A stretch of 64,000 bases of DNA from Candidatus Aminicenantes bacterium (GCA_963705895.1 OY970122.1:1634774-1698773); one strand, 5' to 3'; shown: positions 9,564 to 29,372, numbered from the stretch's first letter. Notes: generated by a model not told the origin, from the sequence alone. Program-made: numbers and translations.

Positions 9564-10454
9564 TCAAGGTTTCCCCTGCCGTTTCAGGGTTTGATAGAGT
9601 TCATAGGCTTTGGCCGGAGTCTCATTCTTATGGACCACGGCCCGGACCGCCTGGATCATGGCCGTGGGCGCGTCGGATTGGAAGATGTTCCGGCCCATGT
9701 CCACGCCGGCGGCGCCCTCTTGGACCGCTTTATGGGCCATGGTCAGGGCGTCGAGTTCCGGGATCTTCTTCCCGCCGGCCATGACGATGGGCACCGGGCA
9801 GGCGGCGCAGACCGTATCAAAGTCGCGCTCGACATAATATGTCTTGATGTAGTGGGCCCCCAGCTCGGCGCAGATCCGGGTGGCCAGCCTGAAGTAGCGC
9901 GCGTCGCGGGCCATGTCCTTGCCCACGGCGGTCACGGCCAGTGTCGGGAGGCCGTAGCGCGTACCGAGGTTGACCATGTTGGTCATATTGATGATCGACT
10001 GCCGTTCGAATTCGCCGCCGATGAAGACCTGGACGGCCACGGCGCAGACGTTCAGGCGGAGGCTGTCCTCGATATCGACCGCGATCTCTTCGTTGGACAG
10101 CTCCTTGAGGATGCTCGCCCCGCCCGAGACCCGCAGGACGATGGATTTGAGAGTGGATGAGGGAATGATCGTCCGGAGGATCCCCCGGGTGAGCATGAGG
10201 GTGTCGGCAAAGGGCACCAGGGGAAGGATGGTCAGGTCGACACGCTCCAGGCCCGTGGTCGGGCCCTGAAAATACCCGTGGTCGATGGCCAGCATGACCG
10301 TCCGGCCCGATTCCGGGTTGAAGATCCGGGCTAGCCTGTTCTGCAGGCCCCAATCAAGTGAGCCGCAGCCTTTCAGGAAAAAGGCCGGCGACTTCTGGGG
10401 AATATCCGAGCGGTAGTTCTTGGCTTCCTTGAGGTCATCGACATCGGGCATCAT
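9564..10454 (-). CDS. DhnA-type class I aldolase (fructose-bisphosphate aldolase / ADH synthase / LsrF family)
   Basis: LAIDHG motif with a TIM-barrel aldolase-like pattern. It lies adjacent to the MDR dehydrogenase. Confidence 0.6.
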
Positions 10455-18936: not shown

Positions 18937-19249
18937 CTGCGAACCCCTTGAAGGTTTGATTAATTGATATCAACAAATAGGAAAAGAGTCAATCATCCGT
19001 TGTGCTCAATATAGAGGACTTACCTTTTTCCGCGACGTGGTGAATGGCTATTCCGTAAGCCTTTGAATAGGATCGGTCTCTTTGTCCCTCGAGAAAGACA
19101 GAATCGGAAACTGTGACCAAATTGTGACTATCCCAGGCATACTTCGGCATACTTTCGCATACCTACAGATACCTCGGACTAAATTGTAAACCCCTGATAA
19201 ATCAGGCTATTACTTCAGAATGTGGAGGTTAGGAAACTCGGTATCTTGC

Positions 19250-19288
19250 ATCCGGAGTCCGCCGCTCTATCCACTGAGCTACAGGCGC
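19250..19288 (-). pseudogene. tRNA-Arg-like 5' fragment (acceptor, D-arm and anticodon loop only)
   Basis: The reverse complement reads GCGCCTGTAGCTCAGTGGATAGAGCGGCGGACTCCGGA (loop CTCCGGA, anticodon CCG). No matching 3' half was found within 300 nt. Confidence 0.4.
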
Positions 19289-19388
19289 ATTCGTCCTCGG
19301 TCGGGAAGACGGGCCAGGCGGTAGGGATTCCGCTTTTCGGGGGCGACCCTAGGCCCGAATTTTATTTTCAAGCATAGGATCCAATTTA

Positions 19389-20600
19389 TTAATTTGCTCC
19401 ATGCTTTTTGAGCAACTCGGCCATTTCTTTGTGGCCGTTCATCAGAGCAATGCCCAGTGGACTTGTACCTCGTGGATCTACACCATCATAGCGCCTAGCG
19501 TTTATATCGGCTCCCATGCCGATTAGCAACTCGACCATCCCTATGCGGTTATTTGCAGCTGCGCCGTATAATGGAGTCGTGCCATACTTGTCTTTGTCGT
19601 TAATATTCGCGCCCCTGGCAGTTAATAGCGCAATCACATCTATGCTGCCGCCAGAGGCGGCCCAGTGCATGGCTGTATTGCCGGCAAAGCCCCTACAGTT
19701 AATATCTGCACCCTTCGCGATCAGCAGTTCGGCTATATCTTTTTGATTACGAAAGGCCGCTTCATGCAGAGGCGTCATCTCATTGTTATCCTTGGCGTTC
19801 ACATCTGCTCCCTTGCCGATAAGGAACTGCGCCACATCGTTGCGGCCTCCCACAATCGCCAAATGCAGCGGCGTGCACCTGGACTTATTTTTGGCGTCCA
19901 GTTCCGCCCCATTGGCAATTAGTAGCTCGGCACCTTTCCTGCTTCGACTGTGCAGAGGTGTCCAGTCATTGTTATCCTTGGCATTCACATCTGCACCCTT
20001 TCTTATTAGAAGCCCTACCACTTCATCGCTCGCAAAAACCGTCGCCCAATGCAGTGGCGTCCAACCCCAGTTATCCGCGCCGTTAATATCGGCTCCCCGG
20101 CGTATTAATACTTGGGCTATTTCCTTTGCCGCTTCTTGTGTGCTGTCGTTCGAGGGCTTAAAGCCTGACGTATTTCCTCGGGCCATTATTGACAAAACTT
20201 TGTCCCCGCTCCTATCATGAAGGAGTGTCCTCCCCTCCTTATCTTTGGCATTTAAATCCGCGCCCTTTTCAATCAATAACTCGACGATTTTTTCCTTGGC
20301 TTCCCTCGCTGCCTCGATGAGCGGCGTCCTGCCCCAACCGTCCTTTGCATTAATATCAGCCCCGGCGGCAATAAGTAGCTTTGCCATATCTAGATTGTTT
20401 TTCCGGGTGGCCAATTGCAGCGGCGTTTGCCCAACAGAATCTTTTGCGTTTACGTCCGCGCCTTTGGCGAGCAACATCTTGACCGCTTCTTCGTTCTCCT
20501 GGTGGATGGCCTCATGAAGTGGAGTAGGCCGAAGAATGTCTTCAAACGAAATCCTTTTGCGTCCTTTAAAGAAAGCCAGGAATCTTTTTAAGCCCATCAT
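19389..20600 (-). CDS. Ankyrin repeat protein (~11 ANK repeats)
   Basis: Repeated TPLHxAxxxxxxxxxxLLxxGADxNAKD units throughout. No signal peptide. Confidence 0.85.
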   Translation of the reverse strand: MMGLKRFLAFFKGRKRISFEDILRPTPLHEAIHQENEEAVKMLLAKGADVNAKDSVGQTPLQLATRKNNLDMAKLLIAAGADINAKDGWGRTPLIEAAREAKEKIVELLIEKGADLNAKDKEGRTLLHDRSGDKVLSIMARGNTSGFKPSNDSTQEAAKEIAQVLIRRGADINGADNWGWTPLHWATVFASDEVVGLLIRKGADVNAKDNNDWTPLHSRSRKGAELLIANGAELDAKNKSRCTPLHLAIVGGRNDVAQFLIGKGADVNAKDNNEMTPLHEAAFRNQKDIAELLIAKGADINCRGFAGNTAMHWAASGGSIDVIALLTARGANINDKDKYGTTPLYGAAANNRIGMVELLIGMGADINARRYDGVDPRGTSPLGIALMNGHKEMAELLKKHGAN

Positions 20601-20829
20601 ACTTTCCTAATCAAAGCGAACGTTTCATTCTTCGGATCTTTTATCATAATCAGTAATTTTATTTGATACTCCGATGACGGAGTTGTCAATGACCCGTGGA
20701 GGCCAATTCTAGTTTCTTGCCTAAACCTAGACCGAAATGAGGTGAAAATGAGCGAAGGTAGAGGATTGGTTAGAAATTGGGACCGAAGCGCATTTGCTTG
20801 GTCTATCGGGGTTTTCTTAGTAATTGAAT

Positions 20830-20877
20830 TGGTGGAGCTGACCAGGATCGAACTGGCGACCTCTTGAATGCCATTCA
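20830..20877 (-). repeat. Partial 3' copy of tRNA-Ala (48 nt, exact); att-like direct repeat adjacent to the integrase
   Basis: Identical to tRNA-Ala positions ~29-76. It diverges 5' of the anticodon loop. Confidence 0.85.
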
Positions 20878-20892
20878 CCTTGTTCATTTCGG

Positions 20893-21969
20893 TTAATTGT
20901 ATGCGGACGAGCGAGTTGCGGGAGTTTCCGCTTTCGGTTTATCGACCCGAATGACGGGATTTATGCCAGCATAGAGCGCCTCGAACTTCTCCATCCCGGC
21001 TTGCATATCCTCGAAGGTCTCATGGACATAGCGCATCGTCATCTCGGTCTTGGAGTGACCGAGGATCTTCTGGAGGGCCACGACGTCGTGCGTCGCCCGG
21101 TAGTACCAGGTGGCGAAGGTATGTCTCAGGTCATGGAAGCGCAGCCCTTTGATCTCCGCCCGCCGGCAAGCCGTATGGAATGAGGTCTTGACGTCCTTCA
21201 CGCCGAACACAAACGCATCCCGGCGAGGGATCGCCTTCAGGATCTCGACCACCACAGAATCCATCGGGACCTCTCTCGGTTTTTTACTCTTCGCCTCCGC
21301 GGCTAGGATGGTGATGAACCTTTCTCTAAACCTCACGTTCTCCCACCTCAGCCCCAGGACCTCGCCCTTCCTCATCCCGGTGTGCAGGGCGACAAGCAGG
21401 ATGGGTTTCAGGCTGGCGCTGGCGCACTCCACTAATCGTCCCCGCTCCCCGCTGGTAAGGATGCGCTCCGGTTTCGGTTCATCATCCTTCTCTATATCCG
21501 CGGTGGGGTCGTCGGTGATCTTCTTCCAGCGGAGAGCCTTCTGGCAGATCGCCCGCAAACAACTAAGCTCCCGGTTGACCGAGCATGGAGAGGCTTTTGT
21601 TGCTTTCCTAGCAGCCTGATACCTTTCCACAAACTCGGGCGTAATATCCTGAAGCGACTTCCCCTTGAGTGCCGGGACCAAGTGAACGCGGATCGAGTTC
21701 TCATAGCTCGCCATCGTGTTGGGGCGGATCTTTCCCTTCTCTGCGAGGAGTTTGAGGTAGTCCTCGGCGAAGTCCTCAAACAGGACCGGCTTCATGGCCG
21801 GCGCAGGGTTCTCAAAAATGCCGTGCTTTTCTTTTTTAAGATGTTCGAGCTTCTCATACATCGCCCGCTCTGTGTCCGCCCTGGAAAGCCCGGTGATGAC
21901 CCGATAGCGACGATAATCGAAGGTTAAGTCATAGAACCATTGGCCTTTATCGTTTTTGCTGACTTTCAT
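20893..21969 (-). CDS. Tyrosine recombinase / phage integrase
   Basis: C-terminal catalytic motifs (HDLRHTFAT...LGHSKTEMTMRYVH) and an N-terminal SAM-like domain. ATG at 21969 overlaps the stop of the upstream small ORF. Confidence 0.85.
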   Translation of the reverse strand: MKVSKNDKGQWFYDLTFDYRRYRVITGLSRADTERAMYEKLEHLKKEKHGIFENPAPAMKPVLFEDFAEDYLKLLAEKGKIRPNTMASYENSIRVHLVPALKGKSLQDITPEFVERYQAARKATKASPCSVNRELSCLRAICQKALRWKKITDDPTADIEKDDEPKPERILTSGERGRLVECASASLKPILLVALHTGMRKGEVLGLRWENVRFRERFITILAAEAKSKKPREVPMDSVVVEILKAIPRRDAFVFGVKDVKTSFHTACRRAEIKGLRFHDLRHTFATWYYRATHDVVALQKILGHSKTEMTMRYVHETFEDMQAGMEKFEALYAGINPVIRVDKPKAETPATRSSAYN

Positions 21970-22175
21970 TCTTCCCTCCAATCATCTGTGAAGAACCTCA
22001 GCTTATTCAATATCGAGCGCCATCTGCGCTGGATCTTTTTAAAATCTGCCTCTGATAAATTCTTGGGCGGTTCGGCCGGGATTTCACGAAGAGCATCTTC
22101 CAGTTTAAAATAATAGAGGAGCGCTCGACCCCGCATTATGAAGTTCTCCAGATTATCGTTCTTGCTGACCTTCAT
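21966..22175 (-). CDS. Small hypothetical protein, translationally coupled to int
   Basis: 69 aa. ATGA overlaps at both ends. The N-terminus MKVSKND duplicates the integrase N-terminus through a ~20-nt direct repeat. Confidence 0.35.
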   Translation of the reverse strand: MKVSKNDNLENFIMRGRALLYYFKLEDALREIPAEPPKNLSEADFKKIQRRWRSILNKLRFFTDDWREE

Positions 22176-24304: not shown

Positions 24305-25747
24305 TCAGTACCATTTGCCCGTCACCGCGTTAAACTTGCCTTGGTACGCTGTCCAAGTAACCCCCTGCGGCTTCCCGGCCAGGGTGAGGGCTCCGGCAAC
24401 CGCGTTGCCTACATCGTCATGTTTCCCGGAAAGGTGGACCACCATGTCATGCCCGCCGCTGCGGACCCGCCGGTCAAGATTGGCCAACTGACCGATGAGT
24501 GTCTTATTGTCGAGAAGTTCACACGAGCGCGACGTGATGATGGGGAGCAAATCGAGATAGAGTTCGTTCGCCGAGCGCTCGGAAAACCTAACCCGAATCC
24601 CCCGAAGTTCAAATGCGTTTTTTATCCATTCCCGACTGAACCTGTCGGACGTGACCTCCAGGCAACCATAGCCCATGAGGATGGCAGCGTATTCGGCAAC
24701 CACCTGGGCAGGATCAAAACCCGGTTTCCGTTCCTTCACCAAGTCCAGGATCTTGAACCGCCCCTCCGTTTCTGCATGAGCGATAGCCAAGGTAAAACTA
24801 TCCTGCCCGCCCATGCTCGGGTCGATAAAGGCCGTGTACTTCAAGCCGCGAAGGGCAGGCAACTCGAAGCGGTCAGGCACCACACACGCCTGGAGCGCCT
24901 CGAAGGACAGGAATGATTCGATATCGGCCCGCCATTGGCTGAGCCATTCGGCGCTCGCCTGCTGAGGGTCATCCACCAGCGCCTCCTTGATGATCTCCGC
25001 GTCAAGCGTCGGGTTCATGGTCATGCTCGGCGCAAGCCACACAAACGCCCGGCCCTCATGCCCGAAGTTCTTTTTGTAGCTTTGCCATAAAATTCCCCTC
25101 CGCGCATAGGCCGTCGAAATACTCAAAAGCAGGCTCTCGGGAATTGTCGCCAACGCCGGCCTGATAGCCCCCAGGACTTCCTCATCCGGGTTCGCACTGT
25201 CCTCTGCTCGCCAGAAAGAAACTTCTTCCAAAATCGCCCCGATCAACGTATAGCCCCGGACACTCCTGAAGCTCGCCGTCTTAACCGATATCGTAATGCC
25301 GTTCTTCAGGTCAATGCTCTCGACGGTCTCCTTGTCGATCATCTTTCGCAAAATGGGCGAACCGCGCAATAACCCGCCGATATAGCGACGAATTATTTTC
25401 GCCTGGTCCTTATCGCAGGCCAGGATGAAGAAGTAACCTCGTTCACCGGGACTCAGGAAGGGAGTCCAGTCCTTAAAACAGCTTAGATAAACAGCGATGA
25501 CCGAGCTGATATAGCTCTTGCCCGATCTACGGCCAGCTATCGCCGAACACTCCCGGATCTTCTCTTTGGGGGGCATGGCAAGGTCAGTACAGTCCCGGAG
25601 CAACTTCAAGTCATCGGAGTCCTGAATCTCCAGCCCAAAGAGCGCTTTCAAAAACACCATCCAGGGACGCCATGTCGAAAGGTCCTTGAACGCGCCGCCC
25701 AAAAGGTTCTTGTCCTCTATGGCCTGGATGATATTGAGATCGTTCAT
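24305..25747 (-). CDS. Terminase large subunit-like protein
   Basis: Walker A AGRRSGKSY, Walker B-like LIGAILEEVSFW and a C-terminal RNaseH-like nuclease pattern (FIDPSMGGQDSFTLAIAH). Confidence 0.7.
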   Translation of the reverse strand: MNDLNIIQAIEDKNLLGGAFKDLSTWRPWMVFLKALFGLEIQDSDDLKLLRDCTDLAMPPKEKIRECSAIAGRRSGKSYISSVIAVYLSCFKDWTPFLSPGERGYFFILACDKDQAKIIRRYIGGLLRGSPILRKMIDKETVESIDLKNGITISVKTASFRSVRGYTLIGAILEEVSFWRAEDSANPDEEVLGAIRPALATIPESLLLSISTAYARRGILWQSYKKNFGHEGRAFVWLAPSMTMNPTLDAEIIKEALVDDPQQASAEWLSQWRADIESFLSFEALQACVVPDRFELPALRGLKYTAFIDPSMGGQDSFTLAIAHAETEGRFKILDLVKERKPGFDPAQVVAEYAAILMGYGCLEVTSDRFSREWIKNAFELRGIRVRFSERSANELYLDLLPIITSRSCELLDNKTLIGQLANLDRRVRSGGHDMVVHLSGKHDDVGNAVAGALTLAGKPQGVTWTAYQGKFNAVTGKWY

Positions 25748-26262
25748 TCCTTGCCGTCCTTATCGCTCACATTTGCCCCAGGTTGAACGATCTCCGAGCC
25801 GCCCTTGTCCGAGGACGCGGGTTTTGCCTTGCCGTACTTCGTCTCAACATACCGGCCAAGGTCAAGTGTCTCATCCGCCCGCTTCCTATCTATGCCTAGA
25901 GTCTGAAGGTCACGACGCAGGGCCTCGGCATAAGTGACGTATGATCGGGCAAGGACCGGGCTTAATTCATGGCCTCGAAATACGCCTTCCTCTCTGACCT
26001 GTTCCTCTATGCAGCGAAGGACTGAGAGTTTCCCGATGAGGGAATTGATGATGATTCTCTGTGCAGTCGTGAGGTCCGCCTCTGTCGGCCCCAGGTCCCG
26101 GATGAGGCCGTCCCGGACCTCAGTTAAATAAGCCCTGAGATACGTCCGGCGCTTTGGCAATTCGCCTGCCCTAATCATGAGCGAATAGGCACCATGTCGG
26201 GGCGGCCGGCCTATCCTCACTTTCGGCTTTTGCAGATTGTCTTTAATCATCGTTATTTTCAC
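25744..26262 (-). CDS. Putative terminase small subunit
   Basis: 172-aa basic protein immediately upstream of terL and overlapping it. Assignment rests on position and composition. Confidence 0.4.
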   Translation of the reverse strand: MKITMIKDNLQKPKVRIGRPPRHGAYSLMIRAGELPKRRTYLRAYLTEVRDGLIRDLGPTEADLTTAQRIIINSLIGKLSVLRCIEEQVREEGVFRGHELSPVLARSYVTYAEALRRDLQTLGIDRKRADETLDLGRYVETKYGKAKPASSDKGGSEIVQPGANVSDKDGKE

Positions 26263-26605: not shown

Positions 26606-27889
26606 TCATGGCTTTCCCTTGGGCAGATACCAGAACCAGCGGCCTTGATACTTGGGCTCCTTATCGGCTATAAGGCCGAGCTTGACCCGTGCCCTTTTGA
26701 TCGTCCATTCGGCGAGACCTTCCTCCCTTGCCTCGGCGATAACGTCGTCGCTGAAGATAACGCCTCCCTCTTTGACTACTTTGAGCTTGGGCTTGATGAA
26801 TTCGACGGCTCGGGTGACCTCGATATTTTCGAGCGGGGGGCAGATCAGGACGTTGGGATCCACGTCGATCAGGTTTGAATATTCGATTTTGGCCGTTTCG
26901 ATGTCGTCTCCGTTTGGGGCTTTGAACGTGATGGGCTGAATGATAAAGGATAGGCTTTTAGTGCCGCCCGTGATATTGCTTTTTTGTGGGACAAGCAGGC
27001 GGACATTCCGGGGATCCTCGGGCCGTCTTATGACGGACCAAGACATTTTAACGCCGGCCATGAATTGAGCGCTGCCCGAGGTTCGGTTGATTGCCTTCGG
27101 GTCTTGGGCCTTGGCGAAGTGCATCACGGCAACTACTGCAACCCCGACCCGATAGGCAAGGGTGCTGAGTAGGTCCATCGCTCGCCGTACCTGGTTTTGC
27201 TGATTCGTATTAATTCGCTCCGGGAGAAAAGAGGCTATGGGGTCAATGACGATGAGTTTGAGTTCTGGGCAGGTCCGAGCGTCATTTTCAAGTTTCGGAA
27301 GGTGCTGCGTAATGTCGAAAATATCGAACTCGCCCTCTTTGTTATAAACGCCTTCGATGAGGTCCACCTTGCTAAGATCGGCGCCGGCCGCGATAAGCCG
27401 AGGGACCAGAATCATCTCCGGGACACCTTCGCTGCTGACATAGAACACCCGGCCTTGGACAACTTCGCCGGGTTTGTCATAGAGGGGGAACGCAACGCCT
27501 TTCGAGACGCGGGCGGTTGCGTCCAGGGTGACTAAGGTTTTCCCCTCCCCGGCGTCGCCCGTGATTGCCGTTGCCATATAAGACGGGATCACGCCGCGCC
27601 ATAGATAGGGAATTTTTCTGATTCCGACGTTCTTCGTATTTCGCCGGGCGATGATGACCTCGTCGTCAGCCTTTTTTGCGGCCGGCTTATAAAACCTTAT
27701 TGCTTCAGGGCCGGGTTTTGTATCTCTTGGAAGCGGAGTCGAGCCCGGATTATTCTTTTGATGAACGAGTTCGGCTGCATCGTCGAGTTCTTGGCGCTCT
27801 ATTTCATTTTCGGATTCATGTTTTATCATCGCCGTTCCCTGTATAAGAAGCGCAAGGGCCGGCGGCCAGGGAACCAACCAACCGGACAC
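26606..27889 (-). CDS. AAA_25/RecA-like ATPase, primase-helicase/RepA-like replication protein
   Basis: Walker A GDAGEGKT in a RecA-like context (YVSSEGVPEM...). The architecture is typical of satellite/PICI pri-rep proteins. Confidence 0.6.
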   Translation of the reverse strand: MSGWLVPWPPALALLIQGTAMIKHESENEIERQELDDAAELVHQKNNPGSTPLPRDTKPGPEAIRFYKPAAKKADDEVIIARRNTKNVGIRKIPYLWRGVIPSYMATAITGDAGEGKTLVTLDATARVSKGVAFPLYDKPGEVVQGRVFYVSSEGVPEMILVPRLIAAGADLSKVDLIEGVYNKEGEFDIFDITQHLPKLENDARTCPELKLIVIDPIASFLPERINTNQQNQVRRAMDLLSTLAYRVGVAVVAVMHFAKAQDPKAINRTSGSAQFMAGVKMSWSVIRRPEDPRNVRLLVPQKSNITGGTKSLSFIIQPITFKAPNGDDIETAKIEYSNLIDVDPNVLICPPLENIEVTRAVEFIKPKLKVVKEGGVIFSDDVIAEAREEGLAEWTIKRARVKLGLIADKEPKYQGRWFWYLPKGKP

Positions 27890-27910: not shown

Positions 27911-28219
27911 TCACCGCTTCCCGCTGCGTCCGCGCTTGGGCTTCGCGGGTTCCAGGTGTTTCAACTCTGGGATTGGCGCTGTGCCTTCGAGGAGCGCGTC
28001 GAGTTTCAGTTTATCGACCCGGCAACCAATTCCCTTGATCTTGGTGCCCGGCACGCGGCCACATCTCAAGGACCGATACAGAGATTTTTCCGATAGATGG
28101 TAAAGCTGACATGTTTCCCGAATTGTCAACCACCGGCGCTTTTCCAGGTTTTCCAGATTTTTTAATGCCATTTTATACCTCACGCGGAAAAATATGCGCT
28201 TCTTCTCTTCCCTTGTCAA
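27911..28219 (-). CDS. HTH transcriptional regulator (AlpA/excisionase-like)
   Basis: LTIRETCQLYHLSEKSLYRSLRCGRVPGTKIKG. Confidence 0.5.
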   Translation of the reverse strand: MTREEKKRIFFRVRYKMALKNLENLEKRRWLTIRETCQLYHLSEKSLYRSLRCGRVPGTKIKGIGCRVDKLKLDALLEGTAPIPELKHLEPAKPKRGRSGKR

Positions 28220-28306
28220 GGCTAAGTAATTGATTCTAAAAGAATTAATGAGACATTAAGGGTAGTGCTTAATGTCTCTTTTTGGGGGCTTTTCGGGGGC
28301 CGGATA

Positions 28307-29056
28307 TCAGCGGCCGAGTGCTTTGATGCTGGCCGCGATGCGCTCGCGGGCTTTCGTGATTGTCTTTAGCGGGACTTTCTCGCCGGTGTAATGCTCCCAA
28401 GCGCTTGCAATTCTACGATCATTCAGCTTGCCGTATCGCTTCTCCTTGTGGAGATCGTAAAAGCACAGGTCCCGCTCGAAGGTCCGCTTCTCGCGCCCGG
28501 TGAGGGCAAAGCCGAAGGTCTTTTTCTGTTCATACTTGAGCGCAAGCCAAATGTATTTTAGTTCCTGAAGCGCAGTCCAGGGAAAAATCTTCACGAAGAT
28601 TTCGCCGCCGGGATAGGGTTTGTTTTTGCGGTCAAACATAGTGCTTTGGAGATCATTGAGCACAGGATTCACACAGCGCAAGAAATCGCCGCTTTTGAGT
28701 TTGCCGGTTCCGATCCCCATAGCGTAGCCATAGGCTTTTAGCTGCGGACCTTGCCTCTTATTCTTCTTGGCTGTCTCTATTACCCTATCATCCCTGTTGA
28801 CGTAGATCCAGGGCAGAGATGAAGCGTGATCGGCGAGTGCTTCTAAATCCCCGTTCCATTGTTCCGCGATTCCCCATTGTCGGCAGAATTCGAGCCAGCG
28901 GTCATCCGTGCTAGCGAACCTTATAACCTGATTCAAGTGCCTCTTGAATTTAGGATTCCTTTTTAAAAGCTCGCCTCGTATCTCGCCCGACCTATATTTT
29001 CTTTTCCCTTCCTCGATCCGCTCTTTAATGTTTTTGAGAATGTCGTGCGTTAACAT
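28307..29056 (-). CDS. Hypothetical cargo protein (249 aa) in the att-proximal accessory slot
   Basis: Clean ORF with no recognisable domain. It lies between the HTH/rep module and the tRNA. Confidence 0.5.
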   Translation of the reverse strand: MLTHDILKNIKERIEEGKRKYRSGEIRGELLKRNPKFKRHLNQVIRFASTDDRWLEFCRQWGIAEQWNGDLEALADHASSLPWIYVNRDDRVIETAKKNKRQGPQLKAYGYAMGIGTGKLKSGDFLRCVNPVLNDLQSTMFDRKNKPYPGGEIFVKIFPWTALQELKYIWLALKYEQKKTFGFALTGREKRTFERDLCFYDLHKEKRYGKLNDRRIASAWEHYTGEKVPLKTITKARERIAASIKALGR

Positions 29057-29296
29057 ATCTGCCTCCCTTCGCAGTCCTAAAAGAAAGGCCGGGGCAAGCG
29101 GCTAGGGAGGACCGCCTTTCGCTGATCAAGCTAGCCCCGGATTTAATTTGACGCTCGCATGCCGGCGTTGTCAATGACGGGATTTTTGCCATAAATTGGA
29201 AATTGAGCGGAAAACAGGCGAAATTGATAGAGTGTTGATAGGCAGGGGTCGAGGTCGTTATTACTCGATACGACGTGGTTTTCTTAGCAAAGTGGT

Positions 29297-29372
<76 letters not shown>

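Follow-up and report, generated by a model that had tools for sequence, protein, structure and literature searches.

The 64,000-nt stretch of Candidatus Aminicenantes DNA analysed here (GCA_963705895.1, OY970122.1:1634774-1698773; hereafter the window) contains a small, tRNA-integrated, satellite-like island. The first gene past the tRNA-side attachment (att) site of this island, ORF249, encodes a 249-aa protein, which a preliminary description had assigned to an att-proximal accessory slot and had put forward as a candidate single-gene defence or interference factor.

The ORF249 locus

The gene and the backbone of the island are located as follows.

28307..29056, minus strand: ORF249, the 249-aa gene (ATG at 29056, stop at 28307)
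29297..29372, minus strand: tRNA-Ala(GGC) (ARAGORN; Rfam tRNA, 61.4 bits)
29297-29344, minus strand: att core repeat on the tRNA side, formed by the 3' 48 nt of the tRNA and part of the repeat 29274-29344
27911..28171, minus strand: helix-turn-helix (HTH) gene of the HTH_17 family, excisionase/AlpA-type, 86 aa from the ATG at 28171 (Pfam HTH_17, E=1e-5; PHROG excisionase)
26606..27889, minus strand: replication-type ATPase of the AAA_25 family, second gene of the HTH_17 operon (Pfam AAA_25, E=3e-24; PHROG primase/helicase)
20893..21981, minus strand: tyrosine integrase, encoded at the island's far end (Pfam Phage_integrase, E=1.5e-30)
20807..20877, strand not assigned: distal att repeat, a copy of the 3' end of the tRNA at a displaced site (90% identity over 71 nt with 29274-29344)

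The tRNA-Ala, the 71-nt direct repeat, the integrase and the place of ORF249 directly after att bear out the island context proposed in the preliminary description. Between the att repeats lie the integrase, an excisionase (Xis)-like HTH_17 gene, a large-terminase homologue, the AAA_25 ATPase and the second HTH_17 gene, whose 86-aa length is taken from the gene call in locus L003. Excision would produce a circle in which ORF249 lies just across attP from the integrase gene (int).

ORF249 is an intact ATG-to-stop reading frame with a GGGAGG Shine-Dalgarno (SD) sequence 7-8 nt 5' of the ATG, and the peptide quoted in the preliminary description, IFVKIFPWTALQELKYIWLALKYEQKKTFGFALTGREKR, corresponds to residues 153-191. 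The records include an identical protein (P0001), a homologue with 52% identity occurs in the same synteny (L001), 86 homologues were recovered and AlphaFold2 gives a confident model; these observations confirm that ORF249 is a genuine gene and not a chance open reading frame (ORF). The product had been called moderately basic. It is basic, and strongly rather than moderately so, with an isoelectric point (pI) of 9.87, 51 Lys and Arg against 31 Asp and Glu, and a net charge of about +20; the median pI of the family is 9.2. The GC content of the gene is 50.4%, compared with 53.7% for the island.

No model from Pfam, NCBIfam, PHROGs or PADLOC matches ORF249 significantly, and the earlier statement that it has no recognisable domain therefore holds for these standard libraries. 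The top Pfam match is PF20109 (DUF6499) at residues 28-63, with 17.4 bits (cut-off 23.8) and E=0.006. Neither NCBIfam nor Pfam gives a defence domain, and PADLOC at E<=0.01 returned for ORF249 and two further family members (P0005, P0008) nothing except one chance-level match of 14.8 bits. The preliminary description had named strong homology to a phage structural or housekeeping protein as evidence that would count against it; searches of PHROG, 50,697 phage records (tblastn), BFVD and the PDB returned no match. ORF249 is a real, rare and uncharacterised gene.

Protein family and predicted structure

A phmmer search of 1.84 billion representatives yielded the 86 homologues (E<1e-3), which are mostly 230-350 aa long and, where named, are all annotated 'hypothetical'. 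With ORF249 as the query, a word-indexed protein search returned no more than the identical protein and one homologue of 52% identity; with the family profile it returned only four proteins. There were no homologues in the 50,697 phage records (tblastn), in 72,556 plasmids or in IMG/VR. The family is rare and metagenomic.

The family alignment falls into three parts: a conserved N-terminal region (consensus Q-R-A-E-L-L-x-R-N-x-x-F ... W-x-x-F-C-x-R-W-x-I-x-x-x-W-D-G), a variable middle, and a conserved C-terminal region (I-Y-I-K-I-x-P-W-T ... F-G-R-D-L-C-W-Y-D-L ... G-K-L-S-x-x-x-I-A-x-x-W ... I-x-x-A-x-x-R-I). ORF249 itself has ELLKRN (29-34), the following F and RQWGI (59-63) at the N-terminus, and RDLCFYDL at the C-terminus. 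The conserved positions are aromatic or hydrophobic, with the addition of the polar residues E29, R33, N34 and D201. R33 is present in 78 of the 87 sequences, D201 in 85 and both in 77; for the N-terminal motif as a whole the counts are A60, E68, L75, L66, R78 and N71, with W61 in 83 and I63 in 70. The segment between the last two helices (the 'turn') is short in 34 sequences (7-17 aa) and long in another 43 (40-115 aa). The alignment contains no His/Cys/Asp/Glu/Lys constellation of the kind conserved in enzymes, and no pore-forming or NTPase signature.

AlphaFold2, run with the family alignment, produced a model with a mean predicted local distance difference test score (pLDDT) of 79.7 and a predicted template modelling score (pTM) of 0.62. 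Confidence is high, and the structure mostly helical, at residues 1-95 and 150-249; the variable middle corresponds to a weak, beta-containing, low-confidence stretch at 96-134. Modelled alone, the C-terminal part forms four helices in an HTH-like arrangement. The structural check suggested in the preliminary description thus delivered a confident, mostly helical model and no significant relative, as Foldseek searches of the ORF249 models against PDB and BFVD returned nothing significant. Among the weak matches of low root-mean-square deviation to the C-terminal model, HTH DNA-binding domains predominated, no more than a hint of a DNA-binding C-terminus.

Region 4 of extracytoplasmic function (ECF) sigma factors was considered as a relative of the C-terminal half on account of a similar pattern by eye, and was rejected. 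In hhalign comparisons with E. coli RpoE and an Acidobacteria ECF sigma factor the probability stayed below 2%, the match did fall on the HTH helix, sigma-like folds were not recovered, and hand-made consensuses reached Sigma70_r4_2 only at E=0.045-0.12.

Position in related elements

Pattern scans of species-representative genomes and JGI metagenomes provided 31 further loci, in all of which the family hidden Markov model confirms a homologue except in L010, L014 and L022, whose contigs end within the gene. Statements on gene layout rest on the roughly one third of these loci with enough flanking sequence. In those, the homologue sits at the end opposite int, across att. A small HTH gene (HTH_17 or HTH_3) follows it downstream in the same orientation, and after that a replication gene (for an AAA_25, primase or HTH_36-like protein). 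The neighbourhood check that the preliminary description had called for hence supports a mobile-element context, with homologues keeping the same place in small integrative elements.

Two layouts recur. The first (the window, L001, L005, L006, L025, L027/L007 and L030) has the order tRNA, RNA motif, homologue, small HTH, AAA_25, small-terminase (TerS)-like protein, large terminase (TerL) ... Xis-like HTH, Int, att repeat. The second comprises mini-elements (L009, L023, L029/L028, L032 and L034/L035) that run homologue, HTH_3, replication-type protein, Int, and span some 3-4.5 kb from the homologue to the int end. Target tRNAs vary (Ala, Leu, Arg-CCT, Arg-ACG, Thr), and the elements come from Acidobacteriota, Aminicenantales and further uncultured lineages. 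An Acidobacteria metagenome-assembled genome (L005) has perfect 59-nt repeats 9.6 kb apart. The closest syntenic relative, L001, is a 2.6-kb contig whose first bases belong to the same tRNA 3' end and which then carries the homologue, HTH_17 and AAA_25. Compared with the window, its AAA_25 protein is 77% identical, its ORF249 homologue 52% and its HTH_17 protein 48%; faster divergence of this kind is typical of specificity-determining regulators, and may mark ORF249 and HTH_17 as such.

The most divergent member of the family, P0078 (L004, 1823-2539), is surrounded by NUDIX, NADAR and ParB-methyltransferase genes of phage/plasmid anti-defence type, and is the only one seen outside an att-proximal context.

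A structured leader RNA

The interval from the att site to the ORF249 start codon contains the following features.

29146..29174, minus strand: promoter-like TTGACA-17 nt-TCAAAT, read from the sequence and ending 4 nt before the int-alpA motif
29075..29141, minus strand: int-alpA RNA motif (RF02996; Rfam 40.7 bits, gathering score 35.8)
29057..29074, minus strand: hairpin CUGC-GAAGGGAG-GCAG, abutting the ATG, with the Shine-Dalgarno AGGGAG in its loop (SD hairpin)

The promoter-like site is kept in L001 and in a second copy of this region within the window (see below); the C at position 2 of its -10 hexamer caused a consensus scanner to pass over it. The int-alpA motif forms a three-way junction with a U-rich tail and a probable loop-tail pseudoknot, in which the CCCU loop of the second hairpin can pair with a conserved AGGG tail (83% of cells paired, with little variation). 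It precedes a homologue in 11 other distinct loci, with scores of 40.7-57.7 bits. Pairing extends to 91% of cells across the alignment (slid controls, 35-58%), and nine pairs show double-sided changes, a count that none of 500 shuffles equalled. The SD hairpin shows compensatory, both-sided changes in five of its six pairs across the 12 loci, and may present or sequester the Shine-Dalgarno sequence. In all 12 leaders that carry the motif, 18-24 nt separate its end from the ATG (whose position was taken from the printed sequence in L010, L012 and L026). Given its position, this fixed spacing and the promoter, int-alpA is best read as the 5' leader of ORF249, where it would act in translational gating. 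An extended leader of this kind, with its SD hairpin, appears to be new.

Strict adjacency of gene and RNA in 12 distinct loci, together with the very basic character of the protein, could also mean that ORF249 is an RNA-binding partner of its own leader, as an autoregulator or an RNA chaperone, and has no target on DNA. We consider this very unlikely. Thirteen other family loci with upstream sequence, about half, lack an int-alpA motif at E<=1, and in E. coli the same RNA precedes unrelated proteins, which shows that RNA and protein are separable.

The E. coli loci concerned belong to chromosomal satellites at yicC (L036-L040; e.g. L036 6001-7035). There, int-alpA is found 15 nt past int and about 23 nt before a gene for a hypothetical protein of 281-321 aa, which is followed by AlpA. 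In four of the five loci Int is 91-98% and AlpA 71-96% identical, compared with 17-28% for the protein behind the RNA. These loci share with ORF249 the RNA itself and, on the circular map, the order int, RNA, fast-evolving protein of 250-320 aa, AlpA/HTH_17 and replication genes; they differ in that the proteins are not homologous to ORF249 and att lies on the other side of int. A relationship between the two sets of proteins was rejected at an hhalign probability of 0.2%. Three of the five E. coli proteins share an N-terminal HTH-like motif. The link between int-alpA and a swappable gene beside att, from E. coli to Acidobacteriota, appears to be new.

The accessory slot

The closest TerL relatives of the island on long contigs (L043, L044 and L045) are 63-64% identical in TerL, 46-58% in the TerS-like protein and 37-41% in Int, and have the same backbone order as the window (HTH_17-AAA_25-TerS-like-TerL-Xis-Int). 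None of the three contains an ORF249 homologue (hmmsearch, E<=10) or an int-alpA motif. Their slots hold a DUF3800 protein (L043), a 196-aa reverse-strand ORF with an HTH_3 gene (L044) and a 70-aa HTH_3 gene only (L045). More distant elements, with 43-48% TerL identity, do carry an ORF249 homologue. The absence of the gene from close relatives and its presence in distant ones indicate a patchy distribution and an exchangeable slot, and the finding of four different contents on one backbone supports a variable, accessory, att-proximal slot.

The same comparison bears on the idea, suggested by the constant place of the gene beside att and its presence in minimal elements, that ORF249 is an essential core gene such as a replication initiator or recombination directionality factor. 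We had entertained a conserved core gene on grounds of position and dropped it in view of the TerL relatives without the gene. With full backbones lacking ORF249 in L043, L044 and L045, and with a separate Xis-like HTH_17 gene and replication genes already present in the island, this explanation is largely refuted and scarcely credible.

Homology between the window and L043/L044 ends directly past a short motif of the backbone, which is kept in these relatives without ORF249.

29175..29190, minus strand: backbone motif GGCAAAAATCCCGTCA, a possible integrase arm-type site and an exact 16-mer common to L043 and L044

The 16-mer common to the window, L043 and L044 is GGCAARAATCCCGTCA. Its 10-nt core, AATCCCGTCA, recurs at 20952-20961 (minus strand), near the other att end, and GGCAAAAATCCCGTCA with AATCCCGTCA may possibly represent an integrase arm-type site. 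Sequences with the look of such sites also flank the att core in L005 (ACGAAAG..ACACGAAAGA at 9793-9812 and 19146-19177).

The window contains a second, decayed version of the slot behind the distal att repeat.

19295..20806, minus strand: degenerate second copy of the slot, after which the copy is truncated
20601-20806, minus strand: leader copy, a remnant of the promoter region, with a promoter-like site at 20656-20693
19389-20600, minus strand: ankyrin-repeat gene, 403 aa, inserted exactly between the promoter copy and the second int-alpA motif
19295-19359, minus strand: second int-alpA motif (Rfam 48.4 bits)

The ankyrin gene insertion is flanked on both sides by AAATAAAATT, and resembles a cargo cassette carried by a tandem element copy that has decayed. 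Its product matches the PADLOC candidate PDC-M72A (E=8e-63), a match that is probably driven by the repeats. Together with the other genes carried by backbone relatives, this insertion substantiates the earlier placement of ORF249 in an att-proximal accessory slot. A third, degenerate att repeat copy (73%) is seen in L005, at 19633-19691, 395 nt past the element end; as in the window, this suggests repeated integration or decay at the same tRNA. Directly past the second int-alpA motif in the window, a fragment at 19263-19289 (minus strand) resembles the 5' half of tRNA-Arg(CCG), with acceptor stem, D arm and anticodon loop. Neither ARAGORN nor Rfam calls it, and a further integration or deletion event may have left it behind.

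Accessory and defence hotspots are known from P4-like satellites and from PICIs, the phage-inducible chromosomal islands (PMC13586616; PMC11773190). The ORF249 slot resembles these in being a variable site by int and att in a small integrative satellite, with contents swapped between relatives. It differs in that its occupant has a regulatory look and no match among known or candidate defence proteins, and in that the slots of relatives host small HTH regulators. The proposal of the preliminary description, in which ORF249 would be an accessory anti-phage or helper-interference factor that is expressed while the island is integrated and blocks competing or helper phages, for instance by binding a phage protein or DNA, can draw on the variation of the slot among relatives and on the moron-like build of the unit, with its own promoter and hairpin and its lower GC content (50.4% against 53.7%). 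The ankyrin gene with its PADLOC match in the sibling slot, the hypervariability of the E. coli gene behind the same RNA (17-28%, against 91-98% for Int) and the hotspots beside int and att in P4-like satellites and PICIs (PMC13586616) add to this. Against it stand the lack of a PADLOC match for ORF249 or two other members, the lack of any enzymatic, pore-forming or NTPase signature, and the absence of the family from the phage, plasmid and viral-contig collections searched. Furthermore, homologues with adequate flank keep their place before HTH and replication genes, even in mini-elements of 3-4 kb, with P0078 as the sole exception, and the divergence of ORF249 follows that of the elements. 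With no defence-model match, no residues of catalytic type and what is essentially one genomic context, a single-gene defence or interference effector was not borne out, and we judge this role rather unlikely. Were it correct, the family would represent a non-enzymatic defence or interference protein without detectable structural relatives.

The downstream inverted repeat

Between the ORF249 stop codon and the HTH_17 gene lie two further features.

28250..28278, strand not assigned: perfect 11-bp inverted repeat GAGACATTAAG-N7-CTTAATGTCTC, candidate operator and/or terminator hairpin
28191..28219, minus strand: sigma-70-type promoter TTGACA-17-CATATT for the HTH_17 operon (10 of 12 matches)

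The inverted repeat begins 28 nt past the ORF249 stop and ends 30 nt before the -35 box of this promoter. Its half-site does not occur a second time in the window, and a second operator in the island was dropped as a candidate for this reason. Different palindromes occupy the same place in L005, L006, L016 and L025 (in a scan for stems of at least 7), and an imperfect one was read from the sequence of L001; the palindromes at this place mostly have no U-tail.

Element-specific, fast-evolving master repressors such as Stl of Staphylococcus aureus pathogenicity islands (SaPIs) and CI of phages sit by the integration module and gate the replication and packaging operon, and related islands carry unrelated versions of them. 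ORF249 could be a maintenance repressor of this type, sitting on the inverted repeat and silencing the HTH_17-replication-packaging operon until a helper-phage protein removes it. The basic protein and the layout of repeat and promoter would suit DNA binding by a repressor equally, the fast evolution would fit, and the variable middle could provide a sensor surface. Additionally, the slot of L044 holds an apparent divergent pair of repressor and Cro-type genes, which suggests that regulators are what is swapped in this slot. Unlike Stl and CI, ORF249 has no canonical N-terminal HTH_3, is co-directional with its presumed target, with a hairpin between them, and shows no sign of repression. The repeat lies upstream of the -35 box without overlapping the promoter, a position more typical of activators, and a tight translational gate suits a toxic or potent activator better than a repressor that is needed constitutively. 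The only sequence lead, DUF6499, also points to activators, and we regard a repressor as distinctly unlikely.

Resemblance to FseA and a proposed role

The activator FseA consists of an N-terminal DUF6499 domain with an AWEFLRRN helix and WGL, a poorly conserved middle with a beta sheet (Jowsey et al., PMC10359603), and a C-terminal DUF2285 domain, an HTH with an extended turn whose Asp210 is contacted by Arg37 of the N-terminal motif (PMC10359603). FseA dimers bind an inverted repeat upstream of the promoter of the excisionase gene rdfS (PMC10359603), and FseA production is held down in several layers, because its overexpression is harmful (PMC10359603). ORF249 parallels FseA and the related RovC in several respects. 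All are proteins of around 250-270 aa with an (A)-E-(F/L)-L-(R/K)-R-N helix followed by W-G-(L/I), a poorly conserved middle with beta strands, and a basic, helical C-terminus with an insertion-tolerant 'turn'. The Arg of the N-terminal motif and an Asp of a C-terminal helix are strongly co-conserved (R33 and D201 in ORF249). Finally, each gene lies directly upstream of HTH_17 and a replication gene, with an inverted repeat before the promoter.

The differences are also clear. In ORF249 the Pfam match is below the cut-off, DUF2285 is not detectable and there is no +1 frameshift. Its elements are phage-satellite-like, with terminase genes, rather than conjugative, and an int-alpA leader would gate its expression. 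The hosts belong to uncultured lineages (Acidobacteriota, Aminicenantales and others), as opposed to Proteobacteria for FseA and RovC.

A motif probe recovered FseA-like plasmid genes with PF20109 and PF10074; after them come HTH_17 and a replication initiator, as HTH_17 and AAA_25 come after ORF249. In an hhalign comparison with three real FseA-like N-termini, the family scored 26.3 (P=5.8e-4), with both motifs in register, and none of 60 column shuffles scored as high. The N-terminal resemblance to DUF6499 is in our view weak but reproducible. The FseA-like genes themselves were found on proteobacterial conjugative plasmids (L046 1477-3099, L047 1104-3102 and L048 1489-3099); some are split by a +1 frameshift, HTH_17 comes next, a gene for replication initiator protein A follows it in L046 and L047, and a short QseM-like gene with DUF2285 only is nearby in L047 and L048.

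The fixed position before HTH and replication genes, the basic protein, the HTH-like C-terminus, the DUF6499 resemblance and the FseA gene order together point to a regulator. We favour, with a probability of roughly 0.4, the reading that ORF249 is a tightly gated, FseA-like activator of the operon beside it, which serves excision, replication and packaging. According to this model, ORF249 would form an optional, self-contained regulatory cassette, with its own promoter, of a small tRNA-integrating satellite-like element. The int-alpA leader and the SD hairpin would probably hold its translation low pending a signal. In the basic, non-enzymatic, mostly helical product, the DUF6499-like N-terminal helix (ELLKRN) is predicted to pack on the C-terminal HTH-like domain by an Arg-Asp contact. 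A dimer would then bind the inverted repeat just 3' of its own gene, and this binding would switch on, or otherwise gate, the promoter of the HTH_17, replication and terminase operon. In this scheme DNA binding and its target, like the direction of regulation and what the leader does, are inferred.

Several results weigh against such a role. Comparison of the C-terminal half with DUF2285 by hhalign gave a score of 9.7, which 13 of 60 shuffles reached, and PF10074 (DUF2285) has no Pfam match in ORF249 or its family; the one trait reminiscent of the extended turn of DUF2285 is the 'turn' of 7-17 or 40-115 aa before the last helix. With either model, Foldseek against the PDB returned nothing at E<2 and no RovC or QseM entry; RovC (PDB 6xz5) should have been in the set searched. 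PF20109 appears at E<0.05 in only two of the 87 family members, and a hand-made family consensus gave no PF20109 match. The inverted repeat could be a mere terminator hairpin and, unlike the FseA box, which abuts the -35 box, it lies 30 nt away from it. Relatives with the same backbone dispense with ORF249, and the gene is therefore not essential to the element. Finally, the choice of activation over repression is a guess. The pattern matches that of FseA, but the C-terminal and Foldseek tests failed; ORF249 is thus proposed to act like FseA and is not filed as a member of its family.

If the proposed role is correct, a type of excision control known only from proteobacterial integrative and conjugative elements and plasmids reaches satellite-like islands of uncultured phyla. 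A possible far-flung FseA-like switch in such islands outside the Proteobacteria also appears to be new. The orphan int-alpA RNA would gain a concrete role as the leader of a swappable att-side gene, and the leader RNA, the basic protein and the inverted repeat with its promoter would form a three-part, testable module for the study of excision decisions in minimal elements. A more far-reaching version, doubtful but worth stating, is that int-alpA is a cis-acting translational gate, and not a free-standing small RNA, which marks an exchange slot of satellite-like elements from E. coli to Acidobacteriota, while ORF249 would be a divergent FseA-like branch (or a new fold) that triggers excision, replication and packaging, perhaps on a helper-phage cue.

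Terminase genes

The island segment at 24305-26262 (minus strand) encodes the large-terminase homologue and, upstream of it, a conserved 172-aa protein that is possibly TerS; the island has no capsid genes. The TerL family is large, with more than 665 proteins at E<1e-30. One of its members, P0166, with 54% identity, is encoded at another place on the 3.3-Mb genome contig that contains the island, and the host accordingly carries a second related element.

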